A DNA stretch of 64,000 nt from Candidatus Thorarchaeota archaeon (lineage in GTDB: Archaea > Asgardarchaeota > Thorarchaeia > Thorarchaeales > Thorarchaeaceae). The notes beneath the pieces are model-generated. The model was not told the origin of the DNA. It was given only the letters and a program-made list of their open reading frames with translations, and made no database searches. The position numbers and the translations under genes are program-made. The stretch spans positions 64,001-128,000 of the forward strand of contig JBHLRZ010000003.1 in NCBI GenBank assembly GCA_048882045.1, given 5' to 3'. Shown piece after piece: positions 8,392-17,365 of the stretch (the first letter of the stretch is position 1; each line of letters begins with the position of its first letter).

Positions 8392-9444
8392 CTATGCAAC
8401 GTCACGTATACCTTCCTTCAAGACAGTGAAGACTGCTTCACCTTCGGGGAGGTTAGGTGAGTCGACAAGACGACAGATTCGTCGTTCTCCCTTTGACTTT
8501 CGCAGATAGCATCGAGTCTGAGGTACGTGTGCCAAGACATGTCCACCAACTGGAGCCGTTGGATCTCCGAAGAATGCGTCGGGTCTAGACATTACCTGGT
8601 TTGTGATGTACACAGCTAGATTGTTTATCTCAGCACCTCTCTGCAGATGGTGAAGATGCTTGTTGAGCTTCTGCTGTCTGGCAGCTAGAGTACCTCTGCC
8701 AGTATACTCTGCCCTAAAGTGACTCGTTACTGAGTCCACGATGAGAAGCTTGGCATTGGCTTCAGTAGCCATCTCCATTGCTTGATCACACAGAAGGATT
8801 TGGTGATCGGAGTTGTATGCACGTGCCCAGACTACATTCTTTAGGACCTTGGATGTGTCCATACCAAGTGCTTCAGCCATGTCCACTAGACGTTCGGGTC
8901 TAAATGTTCCTTCGGTATCAACATAGATAGCGGTTGCATTCAAGCCACCCTCCTCAGGTGGTCTTTGTACATTGACAGCTAGTTGATGAGCCATCTGAGT
9001 CTTTCCAGACCTGAATGACCCGTACATCTCAGTAATGCTCTGAGTTTCGAGTCCACCACCGAACATCTCGTCTAGTGCCTTTGATCCTGTAGAGATCCGA
9101 CCGGCTGTCTTTCGTCGTTCGAGAAGAATGTCAGCGGTTTCGAAACCAATTTCCAACATTTCACGAGCAGCCTTGATGATTTTCGTGGCGGTGGTTTCAC
9201 CAATAGAACCTGCAGCGGCAAGCTCACCAGGTGTTGCAACAGCGATTGCCTCTACACTCTTGTAACCATTCTCAGCCAGCCGTTTTCCAATTGCTGGTCC
9301 GACGCCTGGAAGATCAGTGACCTCTAGTCCTGAGATTCCTTCATCGCCACTATAATCGTCTAAGGATGCTGATTCTTCCGAATCCCCTTCGAAATCTTCG
9401 TAATCCAATTCCTCGTCTGCTTCATCTGCTTTTTTCTTTGACAT
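8392..9444 (-). CDS. radA: DNA repair and recombination protein RadA (acidic N-terminal extension)
   Basis: HhH N-domain LPGVG, GFETA polymerisation motif, Walker [27 protein letters not shown]. Confidence 0.97.
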
Positions 9445-9592: not shown

Positions 9593-9901
9593 CTAGCTTC
9601 GTGTCAGAGTTACTAGAATGAACTCTTCTTGGGGTGCAATTCGGATGCCGCCCATGTTTGTCTGAATCTGAATGAAGGCTAGTTCGCCGCCTTCCTTTAC
9701 GCCCTTGACGATTTCCCAAGTCTTACCAATCAAAGCGCTGAGAAGAGCAGAGATCTCTTCGGCTCGTTCCAGGGTGACTCCCCAAGTATTGATTGGAAAC
9801 CCTTCTGGACTGATGAAGAGAGCGGCATAAACATCAGGAAACTTGCTGGTAATATTCTGAATGATTCGCTCGAAAATCTCACGCTTTGGCATCGCTGTCA
9901 T
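9593..9901 (-). CDS. Roadblock/LC7 domain protein
   Basis: ~100 aa; ALFISPEGFPI...ISALLSAL...IQIQTNMGGIRIAP..EFILVTLT pattern. Confidence 0.8.
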   Translation of the reverse strand: MTAMPKREIFERIIQNITSKFPDVYAALFISPEGFPINTWGVTLERAEEISALLSALIGKTWEIVKGVKEGGELAFIQIQTNMGGIRIAPQEEFILVTLTRS

Positions 9902-10153
9902 GTGTTTAGTACACTCCGTAGCAGTTTCGCGGTGTTCTAGTATCTCAAAGATGTTAAATGGACAAAGAAAAAGCTTGTTGTCATAAACTTGAATCTTTCC
10001 TCAAGTGGTCGGATGTACTGGAGAGGATACAATTGGATGATGCGCTCACGTTTCAACTTGTCTTCGTGGTTCTTTTTTGATGTTTCATATTATTCTGAGG
10101 ATTTCCGTCCTGGGGTTAGAAGAAACACTGAATAAAGTGTGTAGAAGCTCTGA

Positions 10154-10795
10154 TTGCAAACGGTGAATCAAGTGAAATACCATGATGAAAGTCTTGACTT
10201 GACAGGAAGGAGTGTAACAGCTTCTCGCATCATCTCCAGACTAACTCCAGCTCCTTTGATCAATCTCTATGTTGGGATCATCCTTTCTCTTTTCTCTCCT
10301 ATCGGATTAGGACCAGTCCTAGATCCCCCCTCATCCATACTGATTTGTTTGGCAATCATGGTCATTCTCCCGATTGTACCAATTGTCTATGAAGCATGGA
10401 AAGGGAACGTGGATCTAGACGTATCAAAGCGTGAGAGCAGAACAAGATTCTTCATTTTCTCTATGATGTGCGATGTCCTCGCATATTCGGTGTATTCGAT
10501 ACTAGGTTGTCTTATCATGAGTACACTAGCAGCTGCTTATTTTTCTGTAACCTTAGGAATCACTATTGTAAGTCAAAGATGGAAAATCTCTGTCCATGCT
10601 GCGGGAGTTGGAGGACCTGGCACAGCCCTGATCTATGTATATGGACCAACTGCGCTACTTGTGATTCTAGTTTGGGCTGCTGTAGTTTGGTCAAGAGTGA
10701 CTCTCAAACAACACAATACCGAACAGACTCTAGCTGGAGTTATTCTCTCAACTGCAATCACAGTTGTCACTTATTTGGTACTATATCACCCATGA
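10154..10795 (+). CDS. PAP2-superfamily-like membrane protein
   Basis: Six hydrophobic segments; WKISVHAAG and WSRVTLKQH motifs. Confidence 0.75.
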   Translation: MQTVNQVKYHDESLDLTGRSVTASRIISRLTPAPLINLYVGIILSLFSPIGLGPVLDPPSSILICLAIMVILPIVPIVYEAWKGNVDLDVSKRESRTRFFIFSMMCDVLAYSVYSILGCLIMSTLAAAYFSVTLGITIVSQRWKISVHAAGVGGPGTALIYVYGPTALLVILVWAAVVWSRVTLKQHNTEQTLAGVILSTAITVVTYLVLYHP

Positions 10796-10901
10796 TATCT
10801 CGAATGCGCAATTACTGATTTTGTACCAAGTTTCTTCATATGTATAGCATCTGAGTTTAAAATGCAGGTCAAACTGTAAATTATGGAAACGCGGTTTCAA
10901 A

Positions 10902-12158
10902 ATGCAAGACCAGATACTATGCCCAGAGTGTGGAAAACGGATTAGAAGAGGTTCCACATTTTGTATTGGCTGCGGGAAGAAGATTCCTGAGAACACGCCA
11001 CTTGCACCCCCAGAACCGGATCTTGGAGAAACCACTATGAACGAACCTAGTGAATCAAATGATGAACTCCCGAGCCTGGAAGAATCAGGCCTTGAGGCTA
11101 TTGAAGAAGAGGCCGCTCATACTACAACTGATAGTCTATCAGCTGATGATGAGTTGACTTGGGAAGAACCACCTGCTTCTCCAGCTCCAGAACCCGCAAC
11201 GGAAGACCTGAGTTGGGACGATAATACGCTACCAGTCACTGAAGATACTCCAGCTGAGGACTTGTCTCTAATTGAAGCAAGTGAACCTGAGATTGAAGCA
11301 AAAGCTGAAGACTCTGGAGGTCGAAGTACTGATCTTGTTTGGGAGGATGATGAGATTAAAGTGGGCATGCCCTTCAAAGAAGTAGCTCCACCAAGGATCT
11401 ATGATGAGGAGGTCTCGATAACTACAGAAGAAGCGCTTGAACACCTCTTTCCAGATGGTGTGCCTACAGAAGTTCGTGAGGAAACAAAGGAAGCTGTAGA
11501 ACACCTATTTCCCGAGGGAAGAGGTAGCACAACTACAACCTTCATTGATGTTGTAGTTGGAAAGCCTTCAAAGATTGGTCCTTCGTCAATGAAGGAACTT
11601 CAGATACCTGCATGCCCAAACTGTGGAATAGATCTCACTTCTGATGATTTTGAATACCCAGACTATGTCTTTGATGCGATGGGAAGAGCCAGACTTGAAC
11701 ATGGAGAACATCACCTCAAGGAGAACGAACATGAAAAAGCCATTGAATCATTTGAGATGGCGAAGATGCTCTTTGAGAAGGCTGGAAATGAGAAGGGAGT
11801 CCAGGAAAGTGTGAAGCGAGTGGATCTTGGCTACGATGCTATGGCTCGATTCCACTTTGACCAAGGCGAGAACCATCTAAAGGTCCAGGAATATGAATGG
11901 GCAATTGTCCAATTCAGGAAGGCAAGGGAACTCTATATGTTCAGCACTGATGCTAAGAAAAGAGCCCGATGTACAGAGAAGGTCCGAGAATCATATATCG
12001 AGTGGGGTAAGACACTTGAATCTGATGGCGATGGACTATCAAAGGATGGTCATTCAAGAGATGCACTGTCTAAGTACCAAGAAGCAGCTGACAAGTATCG
12101 TCATGGCGAGGATAAAAAACGCCTCCGAGGTCTCGAGAAGAAAATTCGCAAAGCCTAG
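10902..12158 (+). CDS. Zinc-ribbon / acidic disordered linker / TPR (SNAP-like) protein
   Basis: CPECG..CIGCG at the N-terminus, an acidic Pro-rich region, CPNCG, then helical repeats (KAIESFEMAK, WAIVQFRKAR, DALSKYQEAA). Confidence 0.75.
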   Translation: MQDQILCPECGKRIRRGSTFCIGCGKKIPENTPLAPPEPDLGETTMNEPSESNDELPSLEESGLEAIEEEAAHTTTDSLSADDELTWEEPPASPAPEPATEDLSWDDNTLPVTEDTPAEDLSLIEASEPEIEAKAEDSGGRSTDLVWEDDEIKVGMPFKEVAPPRIYDEEVSITTEEALEHLFPDGVPTEVREETKEAVEHLFPEGRGSTTTTFIDVVVGKPSKIGPSSMKELQIPACPNCGIDLTSDDFEYPDYVFDAMGRARLEHGEHHLKENEHEKAIESFEMAKMLFEKAGNEKGVQESVKRVDLGYDAMARFHFDQGENHLKVQEYEWAIVQFRKARELYMFSTDAKKRARCTEKVRESYIEWGKTLESDGDGLSKDGHSRDALSKYQEAADKYRHGEDKKRLRGLEKKIRKA

Positions 12159-13172: not shown

Positions 13173-15344
13173 TTAGATCCAGTCGCCAGTTTCAAGTTTG
13201 CGTGGAAGATATACATCCGTCAGATACTCAAAGCTGTGACTGGCAAATGCCTGGATCTCAGCTTTCTCCTTGAGTTGTAACATAAGACGGAGATCCTTGA
13301 CCCACTCTTTGTTTTGTTGGACGAATGGCTCTTTCAGCATATCCTTCACTCGTTTCATGTCGGTCGGTTGCATGGGGATTCTGACTGATTTTGGAATATT
13401 ATATTCATCTAGATCTCGGCTTAATACTCCCAAGAGTTTGAGTTCAGGAGTTGCGATGAATGGTGACTCATAGCTAAGACGTTTACTACCTCTCAAGAAT
13501 ACAGAGTAGATATAGTGCCCATATGGATCAGAGTCGACCAAAGCAAAAGCGGGAATTTCTAGCTCCTTTACTAGCATCTTCAAAAATGCTCGCGTGGCAA
13601 TATCTCCAGAACCTTTTCCTGTCAGTACAATGCAGGGCTGACGATTCCAATACTTAGCCTCTGCAAGCCGCATCACTGCAGCATCTTTCTCTGAGAGGAT
13701 GATAAACTCAGCATCGCTTTCGACAATCTCGAGTTGATCCAGGAAGGGGGTCACAGCCCAACCGCCTGTACCCATTTTGGTAAGGTCGATGAGGTCCCCA
13801 CCATCTCTAATTGTGACTCGGCCCATTGCTGATCCTCGAGCTGATGCAACGACATGGATACTATCTCGAGTAGTCTGGATCATGGATGCGACATCTTCGA
13901 TTATTTTGTCACTGTATTTTTGCTCTCGAAAGAGATTGACATCACTATAGTAGACCTCTCGTTTCGTAGCATGAAGTTTAGACTTGAGCAAGTTGAATAC
14001 GATTTCCATGACCCTGGCCGTACGGGTCGCATCTACAACGGATGCAAGTGAATGGTACGGTCTAGAAATTGTCTTCATTCCTAATAGCAAAAGATCACGA
14101 ATCTCATCCCAAACGATATTGTCACCACTTCTGCTCGGGATATCAAAGGCAGGTCTGCCTGTCATCATTGTTTCATTCAGGATATCGAGTGCAGTATCAA
14201 CGATTCTTTCGGTAGTGTCATCAGCTGTGAGATTTACAACCTCGACTGTTTCGAGAAGGGGTGTAGCATCTTCAGGTAGTGGCGATTTCACTTTCTCCTC
14301 AGCAGTTGCCCATTTCTCCTTCATTTCCACAGCGAACTCAGCCACAGCTTTTGGAACGGGTAAACCTGATTCCTTCTTGATAGGTTTAGCCTTCTTTCTC
14401 TTAGGGGTAGGTTTTGCTTTCTTCACTGGTTTCTTTGGCGTAGGTGCCTTCTTCGGAGCTGCTTTCTTCTTTGACTTTTTGGCCGCAGGTTCCATAGGAA
14501 TCTCTTCCTCAACTGGTTGTTCCTTCTCTGGTGCTTCAACAGTCTTGGCAGATGCAACAACTTTGAGTGTTTCAGGTTCTCCAGTAATTCGTGCAACTTC
14601 CTGAGAATGAATTAGTTCCTTAGCTGCAACAACTATCTGCTCAGCTTTTGTAGAACTCAAACCGTCCACCTTATTTGCGATATTACTTGGACTTGCCCTA
14701 GCGATTCTTGCTACAGAATCATATCCTGCCCTCTCCATAGAGAGAGCGAGCTTTGAACCCAACCCAGGAACATCAGTAAGTGCAATCTTAGGAGGCAAAA
14801 CTTCTTCAGCTTCTTCAGAACCCTCCACTGGTGGTTCAGCTGTGGGGAGAGCCTTACTCTTATTCACCAAGTCCTTCGCAGCATCCACAAGGTTCTTTGC
14901 CCCTGTCGCGCTGAGACCCTCAACCTTCTTAGCGATTGAGGAAGACCTAGCACGGGATATCTTCTCCACCGTTTCGTATTTAGCTTTGATTAGCCTCTCC
15001 TCTAGCTTCGACCCTACGCCAGGGAGCTGCTTGAGACTGAATTCACTCTCTGGAACAGGAGGTTGTGCAATTTTCTTTTTAGCTTGTTTCTTCTTTGCTG
15101 GGGCTTTTTTCTGCGTGGCTGGCTTTTTCTTCTTGGGAGGTTCTTTCTTTTCTGGAGTCTTCTTGGTTGTCTTCTTCTTTGGTTTTGCTGAGGACTTCTT
15201 CTTGCTCGAATCTTTCTTCGGTGTTTTTTTAGCAGTCTTCTTGGTTGTCTTCTTGGTTGTCTTCTTCTTTTTGTCCTCGCCAAGTACCTCTCCAAGTGTT
15301 GCCTGAACAGTTTCAGGCTTCTTCTTCGACTTCTTGCGGCTCAT
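13173..15344 (-). CDS. top6A: DNA topoisomerase VI subunit A (Spo11 family) with long Lys-rich, HhH-containing N-terminal extension
   Basis: Core TKREVYY (catalytic Tyr), EKDA, LTGKG, DSDPYG, KAEIQA; about 370 extra N-terminal residues. Confidence 0.95.
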   Translation of the reverse strand: MSRKKSKKKPETVQATLGEVLGEDKKKKTTKKTTKKTAKKTPKKDSSKKKSSAKPKKKTTKKTPEKKEPPKKKKPATQKKAPAKKKQAKKKIAQPPVPESEFSLKQLPGVGSKLEERLIKAKYETVEKISRARSSSIAKKVEGLSATGAKNLVDAAKDLVNKSKALPTAEPPVEGSEEAEEVLPPKIALTDVPGLGSKLALSMERAGYDSVARIARASPSNIANKVDGLSSTKAEQIVVAAKELIHSQEVARITGEPETLKVVASAKTVEAPEKEQPVEEEIPMEPAAKKSKKKAAPKKAPTPKKPVKKAKPTPKRKKAKPIKKESGLPVPKAVAEFAVEMKEKWATAEEKVKSPLPEDATPLLETVEVVNLTADDTTERIVDTALDILNETMMTGRPAFDIPSRSGDNIVWDEIRDLLLLGMKTISRPYHSLASVVDATRTARVMEIVFNLLKSKLHATKREVYYSDVNLFREQKYSDKIIEDVASMIQTTRDSIHVVASARGSAMGRVTIRDGGDLIDLTKMGTGGWAVTPFLDQLEIVESDAEFIILSEKDAAVMRLAEAKYWNRQPCIVLTGKGSGDIATRAFLKMLVKELEIPAFALVDSDPYGHYIYSVFLRGSKRLSYESPFIATPELKLLGVLSRDLDEYNIPKSVRIPMQPTDMKRVKDMLKEPFVQQNKEWVKDLRLMLQLKEKAEIQAFASHSFEYLTDVYLPRKLETGDWI

Positions 15345-17365
15345 TCGCTCTCGCCTCCTTCTGCTGCAACTTCTTCTTCATCATCAAGGGAGATATCAGC
15401 CACAAGATCAGAACCGACTGTATCTCTCTCAGTTTCTTCTTGGTCTGCTTGAGTTTCAAACCCAGTTATCGAATCTCTCAGTCTGCTAGCGATTGTTTCA
15501 GCATCGAACTTGGGTTTTTTATGACCATCATTGACAATCGCAACAAGACTCTGAGCGAATTGATCTGCGTACATGGCGAGAATTCCTGCTCGTTTTGCCT
15601 TTCTCTGAGCAGTTTCACGTCTTGTGATGAATCGTCTGAATCGTCTTCCAGCATCTTCAAGTGCTAGTTTGATTTCACGGAGTAAGACTTCGTCTTCAGC
15701 AAGGGCTTGCTTACTCTGTCCTTTGAACATGACGTGGACATAGGCTCCTGCAACATGAATGAAGACCATTATTGGTCCACGTGGAATTCCATTGTCGAAA
15801 GTTGCTACCTTGTAGTTTTTCCAGTTGACAGATGCAGTTGCTTTCCAAGTTGCACAGTCACTGTTATCTCTCAATTTTGGTACACGATTAACAAAACGCC
15901 AGAGAACCATTGGAGCAGAGCTTGCAGGTTTGATCTCTCCTCCATAAGCGATACAGACCTCGACTGCAAACGAGAGACCCTTTCCTGATGTTGGTTTTCG
16001 AGTCACAGCTGTTGCAAAGTCGGGTTTGTAAGCCATTTTGATTGTCTGCTCGAAGACCTCCTCACCAACAGGGACCACTGTGTCTGTAGGTGGAGCGATA
16101 TAGTCCTCATTTGAGAATGAGCGATATAACAGTTCGACTTCTGTCTTGGAAAGTGAATCAGTCGGTGTACTCATTTTTAGATCATCGAGATGACGTCTTC
16201 TGAGATCTTTGCTAGCATTCGAAACAATTGTCTTTGCCTTATTAGAACTCAATCTGCAGAATGCCTTTGTAAGGAATCCTCTCAGATCAGACTCTCGAGT
16301 TTCACGAAGCAAGTCTTGGAACTCACCAATTCTGATGCTTGCAGGATGAGGTTGCGCGTACTTTGGTTCCTCAGGGAACTGATTCACCTTTCTTGGGAAG
16401 ATGTTGACTTGTCCATATGGATCGATGAATATGATGGTGACATGGGAATTTAGAAGGGAGGCCATCTCACAATAGATATCAGCATACCCCCTTCTGTATT
16501 GAATATTGAGATAATAGAGCTTAATGAATGTACCATGATGGAACGGGAGATCCATGTCAACTGGACCACCAACATGGTCCTTTGTGTTTGCTGTGGTTGT
16601 GTAGAAGTTAGTAACAGTAGCCGCGTCTGAGTTGAATCGTTTTGAAATAGTGAATATCGGTTTACCAGTTGTGTTCTGAGCGTCGCTGAATGCAGATGGC
16701 GCTCCAAATCCCTGGCTACCTCTAGTTTGTCGAAGTTTCTCGGATTTACTTGAGGCGAGATAAATCCCAAATTTCTCTAGGTCTCTGGCAATCATTCCAA
16801 CTCCAGTATCGAAGCATGAGAACTCATACACCTTGAAGCCTTCTTCATCATCTATCGGGACTAGGTCCGGCATCTGGACCTCCTTCAGTTCAATGACCAC
16901 TAAGGGTTCACGCTTGGTCAATAGAGGACGAAGCGGAGCAACAAACTTCCGGAACTCAGTTATTCCGTCATCTATCGTTTCTTTGCGTCGTGGAGGAATT
17001 TCAACCTCTTTACCAGCCTTGACATCCCGTTCTAGTTGCTTACTTAGTGCTATAGTATCGATCTGACCCTCTTGGAGTTTTGCGCGTACTTCTTCGACGA
17101 CTGCAGGATCAAGTTGGTCCTGTAGACGAGGTCGTCTGCTAGCCTTCCACCACCAGCTCTCCAAGGCATCAATAGCATTGTCAAGAAACTCGATTGCATA
17201 TTGCGTATGTTTATTCAGTCCAGTTTCAAAACCCACTAGTTGAGTTCTCTTTCTCATGAATTTGGCTATCGTACCCTGCTTGATGTCTCCTGTATCTGTT
17301 CTAGTGGGAGTCGGTGCAGGTTGCGCCTTCTTGGGTGGTTTCTTCGATTTCTTCTTTGAGCTCAA
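15341..17365 (-). CDS. top6B: DNA topoisomerase VI subunit B
   Basis: GHKL motifs EFLDNAIDA, DTGVGM, RGSQGFG; PHP, RFVNRVP, QSK; TTG start; 4-nt overlap with top6A. Confidence 0.93.
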   Translation of the reverse strand: MSSKKKSKKPPKKAQPAPTPTRTDTGDIKQGTIAKFMRKRTQLVGFETGLNKHTQYAIEFLDNAIDALESWWWKASRRPRLQDQLDPAVVEEVRAKLQEGQIDTIALSKQLERDVKAGKEVEIPPRRKETIDDGITEFRKFVAPLRPLLTKREPLVVIELKEVQMPDLVPIDDEEGFKVYEFSCFDTGVGMIARDLEKFGIYLASSKSEKLRQTRGSQGFGAPSAFSDAQNTTGKPIFTISKRFNSDAATVTNFYTTTANTKDHVGGPVDMDLPFHHGTFIKLYYLNIQYRRGYADIYCEMASLLNSHVTIIFIDPYGQVNIFPRKVNQFPEEPKYAQPHPASIRIGEFQDLLRETRESDLRGFLTKAFCRLSSNKAKTIVSNASKDLRRRHLDDLKMSTPTDSLSKTEVELLYRSFSNEDYIAPPTDTVVPVGEEVFEQTIKMAYKPDFATAVTRKPTSGKGLSFAVEVCIAYGGEIKPASSAPMVLWRFVNRVPKLRDNSDCATWKATASVNWKNYKVATFDNGIPRGPIMVFIHVAGAYVHVMFKGQSKQALAEDEVLLREIKLALEDAGRRFRRFITRRETAQRKAKRAGILAMYADQFAQSLVAIVNDGHKKPKFDAETIASRLRDSITGFETQADQEETERDTVGSDLVADISLDDEEEVAAEGGESE

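Follow-up and report, generated by a model that had tools for sequence, protein, structure and literature searches.

The A subunit of topoisomerase VI (topo VI), Top6A, is the ancestor of Spo11, and in eukaryotes both topo VI and Spo11 rely on accessory factors. The gene considered here, a top6A of 723 amino acids (aa), lies in a 64,000-nucleotide stretch (the window; contig JBHLRZ010000003.1, positions 64,001 to 128,000) from a Candidatus Thorarchaeota archaeon of the family Thorarchaeaceae, and its product carries an N-terminal arm of ~370 aa upstream of the core. It shares with the archaeal Top6A chains of S. shibatae (2ZBK), M. jannaschii (1D3Y) and M. mazei (2Q2E/9O0G) the 5Y-CAP and Toprim domains, the catalytic Tyr, Glu and DxD residues and an adjacent top6B gene, but those chains, of 301-389 aa, have neither the arm nor its helix-hairpin-helix (HhH) domains, basic tracts and Q-x-T-L motif. 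In other Asgard archaea, Top6A extends no more than 40-100 residues upstream of the core, and Asgard/eukaryote-type Top6A shares with the present protein the extra alpha-1 helix that has been described for Asgard and eukaryotic Top6A/Spo11 (Brinkmeier et al., 10.1101/2022.05.08.491100). Core and alpha-1 helix being already known, the arm is a variation on a known enzyme. No description of an HhH arm on Top6A or of a giant Top6B was found in the literature, most subscription journals lying outside the search, and the term HhH is absent from the main text of Brinkmeier et al. and of PMC12680538.

Two further systems offer points of comparison. Topoisomerase V of Methanopyrus kandleri, a type IC enzyme with 12 tandem (HhH)2 domains, resembles the Thorarchaeaceae Top6A in joining a topoisomerase core to tandem (HhH)2 domains, which in its case act as a processivity factor (PMC9489208). 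However, its catalytic domain is unrelated and its array is C-terminal, tightly packed and endowed with apurinic/apyrimidinic lyase (AP-lyase) sites, whereas the Top6A arm holds 2-7 domains and long disordered basic linkers. Plant topo VI likewise depends on extra DNA-binding parts, the RHL1 and BIN4 proteins (PMC11302465), but these are separate and eukaryote-only, and no homology to the arm is claimed.

Architecture and conservation of the Top6A arm

The gene reads as the original prediction had described it: the 723-aa frame, both quoted repeats and the RadA segment compared with them are present letter for letter, and the catalytic core is intact, with Y466, E552, D604 and D606 (the last three forming the Toprim Glu and DxD) invariant in a 46-row Asgard alignment. 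The ATG start is supported by a 4-bp ATGA overlap with the top6B stop at 15341-15344. The core occupies approximately aa 371-723 according to Pfam and NCBIfam, with TP6A_N (PF04406) at 440-498 and Toprim (PF21180, 182 bits) at 547-717, and Pfam also recognizes two HHH_5 domains (65 bits, cut-off 27). In the full-length AlphaFold2 model the core is normal and matches archaeal Top6A structures (E 2.5e-22), and the arm consists of two four-helix (HhH)2 domains with a predicted local distance difference test score (pLDDT) of ~95 and disordered flanks; disorder covers aa 1-98 (pLDDT below 50), 166-183 and 256-312. Modelled alone, the tandem reaches a predicted template modelling score (pTM) of 0.43, so that the two domains are probably not packed against each other. 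Each of them superposes on the N-terminal domain (NTD) of RadA with a root-mean-square deviation (rmsd) of 0.8-1.3 Å over 54-59 residues and ~33% identity, which bears out the proposed HhH fold. The helix at aa 332-353, assigned by its position in the model, is taken as the known alpha-1 helix. As for the Lys/Ala/Pro tails, the low-complexity tracts at aa 25-95 and 286-325 are real, and the first of them holds 21 Lys in 40 residues, the second highest value among the 3,187 open reading frames (ORFs) of the genome. Their supposed likeness to histone H1 did not hold beyond K/A/P composition, as judged from the sequence, and no Pfam match of Top6A to linker histone H1 or HC2 was obtained at E 0.1.

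The arm is a family-wide trait of Thorarchaeaceae, and no searched genome from outside the family yielded one, which answers the suggestion of a survey across Asgard Top6A. Among 59 top6A loci not truncated at the 5' end, 56 carry it, and the three that do not are a gene broken by a run of N, the genome of a sister family and a woesearchaeote. The number of HhH domains in the 56 complete Thorarchaeaceae copies is 2 (47 copies), 3 (1), 4 (6), 5 (1) or 7 (1), never below 2, and complete frames measure 658-954 aa across genera. The single sister-family genome encodes an arm-less Top6A of 420 aa; the frames of other Asgard families span 395-453 aa among the matches listed, beyond which stood 83 weaker ones, and five further genomes of other families, checked separately, showed no HhH on Top6A. 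The possibility of an assembly chimera or frame artefact, raised at the outset, is ruled out by the presence of the exact 723-aa protein on 5 contigs, by the same layout in the 56 complete relatives and by the PF14520 domain, which almost every one of the 120 best long homologues carries; close homologues have in fact been annotated automatically as 'helix-hairpin-helix domain-containing protein'.

At the extreme N-terminus, within the fast-evolving disordered tail (aa 1-98), the motif Q-x-T-L persists in 54 of the 56 complete family sequences, against a background of 96 in 3187 ORF starts of the genome (3%). Both sequences that lack it have a frame broken at the 5' end, and Q, T and L are otherwise invariant. 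The motif fits the first half of the archaeal consensus for PCNA-interacting peptides (PIP), QxxhxxAA (PMC4929162), with Q14 and L17 as the PIP Gln at position 1 and the hydrophobic residue at position 4 in a disordered terminus; the aromatic pair at 7-8 is absent, mostly L, V or I standing there. A co-fold of the tip with the single PCNA of the genome scored 0.59, against 0.00 for the best control, with runs agreeing in at least 96% of contacts and a partner pLDDT of at least 60. Of 80 solved pairs, 58 attain the mark passed by this co-fold, as do 2 of 110 mismatched ones, but those that attain it with 0.60 or less are just 7 of the 80 solved pairs and both mismatches; the pass may also reflect PCNA-PIP complexes that have already been solved. 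Docking of the tip on PCNA is weakly suggested by the model. A PIP-looking Q-x-x-I-x-x-F-M near the start of Top6B was dropped, as a by-eye alignment places it on the ordinary N-strap common to other Asgard Top6B. Only one PCNA gene was found in this genome (G000:C2:158165-158923); some other Thorarchaeaceae have two in tandem, the second ~63-65% identical to it (L241:1048-2741(-), L244:1060-2705(-)).

The enzyme bearing the arm seems to be an ordinary topoisomerase, as indicated by its intact, overlapping Top6B. This partner has GHKL and transducer domains (NF003218, 341 bits, cut-off 274; PF09239, 145 bits), and no HhH domain was found in its 674 aa. A meiotic Spo11 identity was considered and rejected, given that Top6B passes the canonical model and is no degenerate TopoVIB-like partner; the core is moreover much nearer to archaeal Top6A (E 2e-57, 2ZBK_A) than to yeast Spo11 (E 3.5e-6). 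A loss of the catalytic Tyr in relatives, suggested by a first regular expression, turned out to be a change of the preceding residue from Y to F, the catalytic Tyr being constant. The genome has two further top6B-top6A pairs, both arm-less (L118:3193-5755(+), L119:3533-6195(+)), and the Top6A of the second apparently has D-x-S, read by eye, where the Toprim DxD is expected. The count agrees with the three top6A copies reported for Thorarchaeia (PMC12680538).

A family-specific HhH module

The HhH domains of the arm have close counterparts elsewhere in the genome, in which HHH_5 matches 16 places. After Top6A itself, a profile of the Top6A repeats finds there the ribosomal protein L32e (63.7 bits; L102), the RNA polymerase subunit Rpo6 (63.5 bits; L103), an MFS-like membrane protein (56.7 bits; L104) and then RadA (47.3 bits), and in a wider sample a profile built only from Top6A repeats gives L32e 71, Rpo6 64 and RadA-NTD 50 bits. 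The nearest class is L32e for 112 of 138 Top6A repeats and RadA for 3, with a mean best identity of 47% and 37%, respectively, a comparison that somewhat favours the classes other than RadA, whose rows are less diverse. The spacing of the second hairpin is one residue longer than in RadA in 135/138 Top6A repeats, as in L32e and Rpo6, and in none of 31 RadA sequences. Two trees of the 62-column domain gave no resolved grouping, and three approximately unbiased (AU) tests rejected none of the arrangements (Top6A+L32e, p 0.58; Top6A+RadA, p 0.40). The first hairpin, G-h-G followed by Lys, is near-invariant (G10 in 135 and K12 in 123 of the 138 repeats). The mean net charge is +4.7 for Top6A repeats, -3.8 for Rpo6 copies and -1.6 for RadA, so that the RadA/Rad51 NTD, although of the same (HhH)2 fold, is slightly acidic in Thorarchaeaceae, besides being shorter before the second hairpin and farther from the repeats than L32e and Rpo6. 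In Foldseek the tandem matches NusA best (E 6.5e-4), followed closely by SAM tandems, and topoisomerase V is also among its matches; the tandem's profile against sequences of the PDB places topoisomerase V first (E 2e-16), ahead of RadA (2e-12).

In Thorarchaeaceae L32e, the nearest relative of the Top6A repeats, the HhH domain is followed by a Lys/Ala/Pro-rich linker, the same unit as in Top6A, and some genera whose Top6A has at least 4 domains have two in L32e. The HhH-extended L32e (eL32) of haloarchaea also matches the repeat profile (E 6e-8), but it is a ribosomal protein that bears the domain. The L32e and Rpo6 fusions are present across Thorarchaeaceae, neither turning up in the sister family or in the other Asgard copies examined; for the Rpo6 extension of Thorarchaeota, only a helical N-terminal fragment has been noted (PMC13257274). 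In another Thorarchaeaceae genome, G092, the module also occurs on S25e, on HEAT proteins and on the C-terminal ends of surface proteins of ~2,200-2,450 aa, with 17 module matches vs 3 in the sister family. Lys-rich tails, in turn, are found on about a dozen proteins of the window's genome, including L32e, S25e, uL18, Rpo1C, FKBP and HdrA-MvhD. Taken together, sequence comparison indicates that the arm is assembled from a mobile, family-specific module of RadA-NTD-like fold; it is no demonstrable RadA fragment and no linker histone. Of the RadA likeness that had been seen by eye, the fold is retained, and descent from RadA is not supported.

Several minor observations concern the module. The MFS-like protein carries it across Thorarchaeaceae, and L32e carries one or two copies (L257-L266, L269); in the sister family the MFS-like protein and RadA-type proteins were the only carriers found. 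Three G092 proteins of 2,200-2,450 aa with a secreted or surface-anchored look have HhH near the C-terminus (L267:11960-18784(-), L267:3056-10390(-), L268:1269-7907(+)). Lys/Ala/Pro-rich tails are located on S25e, HdrA-MvhD, uL18, Rpo1C, FKBP and two HEAT proteins (L105, L110, L111, L112, L113, L107 and L109). The genome also encodes a second RadA-like protein with a divergent HhH N-domain (L117, G000:C26:36283-37359) and a 761-aa MutS_V protein with an N-terminal HhH (L120, G000:C22:24564-26846).

Role of the arm and competing explanations

By analogy with topoisomerase V and plant topo VI, we consider it moderately probable that the arm is a flexible DNA/PCNA tether that raises the residence time of a eukaryote-type topo VI. 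The Thorarchaeaceae enzyme would be an A2B2 assembly with the product of the adjacent top6B, displaying two arms per holoenzyme, its A subunit having gained the arm from the mobile unit of (HhH)2 and Lys-rich linker. Basic tracts and HhH hairpins would bind the DNA backbone without sequence specificity, keeping the enzyme on DNA between catalytic cycles or aiding the capture of a second duplex. The expected effect would be a higher processivity and salt tolerance, as with the (HhH)2 domains of topoisomerase V, and the Q-x-T-L tip might dock PCNA and place the enzyme near forks for decatenation. In this way the arm would act in cis, playing a part comparable to the one that the separate and unrelated RHL1 and BIN4 may have in plant topo VI. 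The DNA-tethering role already suggested for the protein seems plausible, the repeats being basic and the tracts carrying net charges of +32 and +18, and a copy number of 2 to 7, never below 2 in 56 genes, fits an avidity element. Nevertheless, four observations weigh against tethering. Most Asgard Top6A proteins, that of the sister family included, lack such an arm; the second hairpin of the 138 repeats is usually G-L-S instead of G-h-G; the C-terminal PIP-like boxes of this genome have the aromatic pair that the Top6A tip lacks; and the module, which also sits on ribosomal proteins and on C-terminal tails of MFS-like and surface proteins, need not bind DNA. Thorarchaeaceae Top6A provides a natural single-chain eukaryote-type topo VI with a deletable arm, in which the effects of tethering to DNA or PCNA on processivity, decatenation and cleavage are directly testable. 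The family-wide habit of adding the HhH module to many proteins accounts for part of the finding and limits its surprise.

The same habit underlies two other explanations. The module might be a lineage-wide tag for a common protein or RNA partner, or for self-association as in NusA-AR and SAM, which would bring ribosomes, RNA polymerase, topo VI and membrane proteins together in one place instead of aiding topo VI catalysis. Its occurrence on L32e, Rpo6, S25e, MFS-like, HEAT and surface proteins, the closeness of the tandem to NusA and SAM tandems in Foldseek and the acidity of the Rpo6 copies fit this idea, but the copies on Top6A stand out as basic and have retained the first G-h-G-x-K hairpin, and a surface charge that varies between hosts argues against one common partner, so that we regard such a tag as unlikely. 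Slightly less credit is given to near-neutral accretion, whereby HhH domains and Lys-rich tails would be added to many housekeeping proteins with hardly any consequence apart from solubility or a weak electrostatic attraction. Such tails are borne by about a dozen unrelated proteins, a metabolic enzyme included, linkers vary freely in length and sequence, and module matches abound in G092 compared with the sister family; yet accretion sits poorly with an arm kept in 56/56 complete genes, through frames of 658-954 aa across genera, and with an invariant tip motif and conserved domain residues.

The explanation that the original prediction had drawn, domains taken from the RadA-NTD that link a Spo11 homologue with the recombinase or with intermediates of recombination and foreshadow the coupling of Spo11 with Rad51/Dmc1, appears highly improbable. 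The shared fold (rmsd about 1 Å) speaks for it, as does the AU test that leaves Top6A+RadA standing, by which a remote RadA ancestry would be possible, and the core is probably a member of the Asgard clade for which a sister relationship to Top6A/Spo11 has been reported (PMC12680538). Against it stand the closer L32e and Rpo6 modules with their longer second-hairpin spacing, the intact overlapping Top6B and the restriction of the trait to a single family, which is not sister to eukaryotes. The proximity of radA, to which meaning had been attached, loses it on inspection. The distance from the top6A end to the radA start is 3.7 kb, and the gap measures 2.5-7.5 kb in most Thorarchaeaceae, but radA lies 1.8 kb from top6A in the arm-less sister-family genome, so that proximity is independent of the arm, and a top6A-radA operon is ruled out by the two opposite-strand genes between them. 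The genes form a syntenic block of top6A, an amidohydrolase gene, a Zn-ribbon/TPR gene, a small membrane-protein gene, a roadblock gene and radA, and radA was not found in 18 regions, some of them short, around Top6A of other Asgard families. The arm is thus no evidence for a link between Spo11 and recombinase, because the same domain decorates ribosomal and RNA-polymerase proteins of the lineage, and it has no bearing on the coupling of the two. Within the block, at 9593-12158 of the window, a roadblock/LC7 gene lies directly upstream of radA, and there is also a gene for a Zn-ribbon, an acidic linker and TPR; both are conserved parts of the block across the family.

Table 1. Positions in the window of the top6A gene, the parts of its product and the neighbouring genes
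Feature	Position	Strand	Basis
top6A, 723 aa, Asgard/eukaryote-type topo VI A subunit with N-terminal arm	13173..15344	-	ORF, Pfam, NCBIfam, AlphaFold2
Q14-x-T16-L17 tip motif, aa 14-21, PIP-box-like	15282..15305	-	Family conservation
Lys-rich disordered tract 1, aa 25-95, 49% K, net +32	15060..15272	-	Composition, AlphaFold2
(HhH)2 domain 1, aa 102-163, net +6	14856..15041	-	Pfam, AlphaFold2, superposition
(HhH)2 domain 2, aa 187-248	14601..14786	-	Pfam, AlphaFold2, superposition
Lys/Ala/Pro-rich disordered tract 2, aa 286-325, 45% K, net +18	14370..14489	-	Composition, AlphaFold2
Helix aa 332-353, ahead of Top6B-binding helix	14286..14351	-	AlphaFold2 model; conserved segment in family alignment
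Top6A core (5Y-CAP + Toprim)	13176..14237	-	Pfam, alignment, structure match
Catalytic Y466 of Top6A	13947-13949	-	Alignment
top6B, 674 aa, partner ATPase subunit	15341..17365	-	ORF, Pfam, NCBIfam
radA, 350 aa, syntenic neighbour, for comparison only	8392..9444	-	Pfam, NCBIfam

Extensions of topo VI in other Asgard lineages

HhH arrays are also attached to topo VI in other Asgard archaea, where they sit on the B subunit. In Heimdallarchaeia (the class of genome G028), the Top6B paired with eukaryote-type Top6A is giant, its longest frames reaching ~4,140-4,300 aa in family f5 (including two single-contig genomes), ~3,500 aa in f14 and f25, ~2,310-2,350 aa in f22 and ~1,110-1,155 aa in f26; shorter frames also occur in the class and are probably cut by contig ends. 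The Top6B of Borrarchaeum measures ~2,290 aa. RAD51D_N, HHH_5 and alpha-CTD profiles hit the extensions of both groups. An iterated profile that starts from the Thorarchaeaceae module counts 6 to 20 repeats per giant Top6B as a lower bound, and a basic tail often follows the array, in some of these proteins with Q-x-T-L (giant Top6B loci: L189:1794-14354(+), L191:8097-15029(-), L192:5938-12804(-), L193:7577-10915(-) and L207-L226).

Since the C-terminus of Top6B binds the N-terminal region of Top6A (Brinkmeier et al., 10.1101/2022.05.08.491100), both kinds of arm would exit the enzyme at about the same place. Sequence comparison suggests that the Thorarchaeaceae and Heimdallarchaeia arrays probably arose separately; a single origin is not favoured, because the Top6B cores of the two groups are only 21-26% identical, several other Asgard families have neither array, and a profile of the giant arrays scores the Thorarchaeaceae repeats at 17 bits or less. 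It can be proposed, tentatively and with more doubt than confidence, that tethers made of HhH arrays, basic tails and a PCNA-docking tip became part of Asgard topo VI more than once, each time where the A and B subunits meet. In Thorarchaeaceae the tether would extend from the N-terminus of Top6A, and in Heimdallarchaeia from the C-terminus of Top6B, in proteins of up to ~4,300 aa. If such tethers did evolve, the enzyme in the lineages near the origin of eukaryotes would have been a decatenase coupled to the clamp and tethered to the chromosome, and eukaryotic topo VI and Spo11 would have met the same need later, through accessory factors that are separate proteins. The parallel arrays suggest a recurring pressure on topo VI in Asgard archaea.

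Other additions were observed in these lineages. In Borrarchaeum, Top6A has a ubiquitin/SUMO-like domain at its N-terminus (Pfam ubiquitin 31 bits, Rad60-SLD 33 bits; L192:5454-5753(-)), and the Top6A of three families of the Heimdall group has a similar-looking N-terminal domain of ~80 aa with a weak Pfam match or none (L189:14357-14656(+), L190:3893-4192(+), L191:7788-8087(-)). In family f9, Top6B is ~1,080-1,150 aa long, with long insertions and, towards the C-terminus, a weak SAP/Rho_N/HeH-like match below the cut-off followed by a conserved terminal domain (L194:7326-7985(-), L205:9428-10207(-)); this region is possibly a third kind of appended DNA-binding part. In genome G139, the giant top6B has gyrA and a probable gyrB immediately upstream (L191:15046-19513(-)), and genome G105 has two adjacent top6B-top6A pairs with a HEAT-repeat gene between them (L192:4365-18606(-)).

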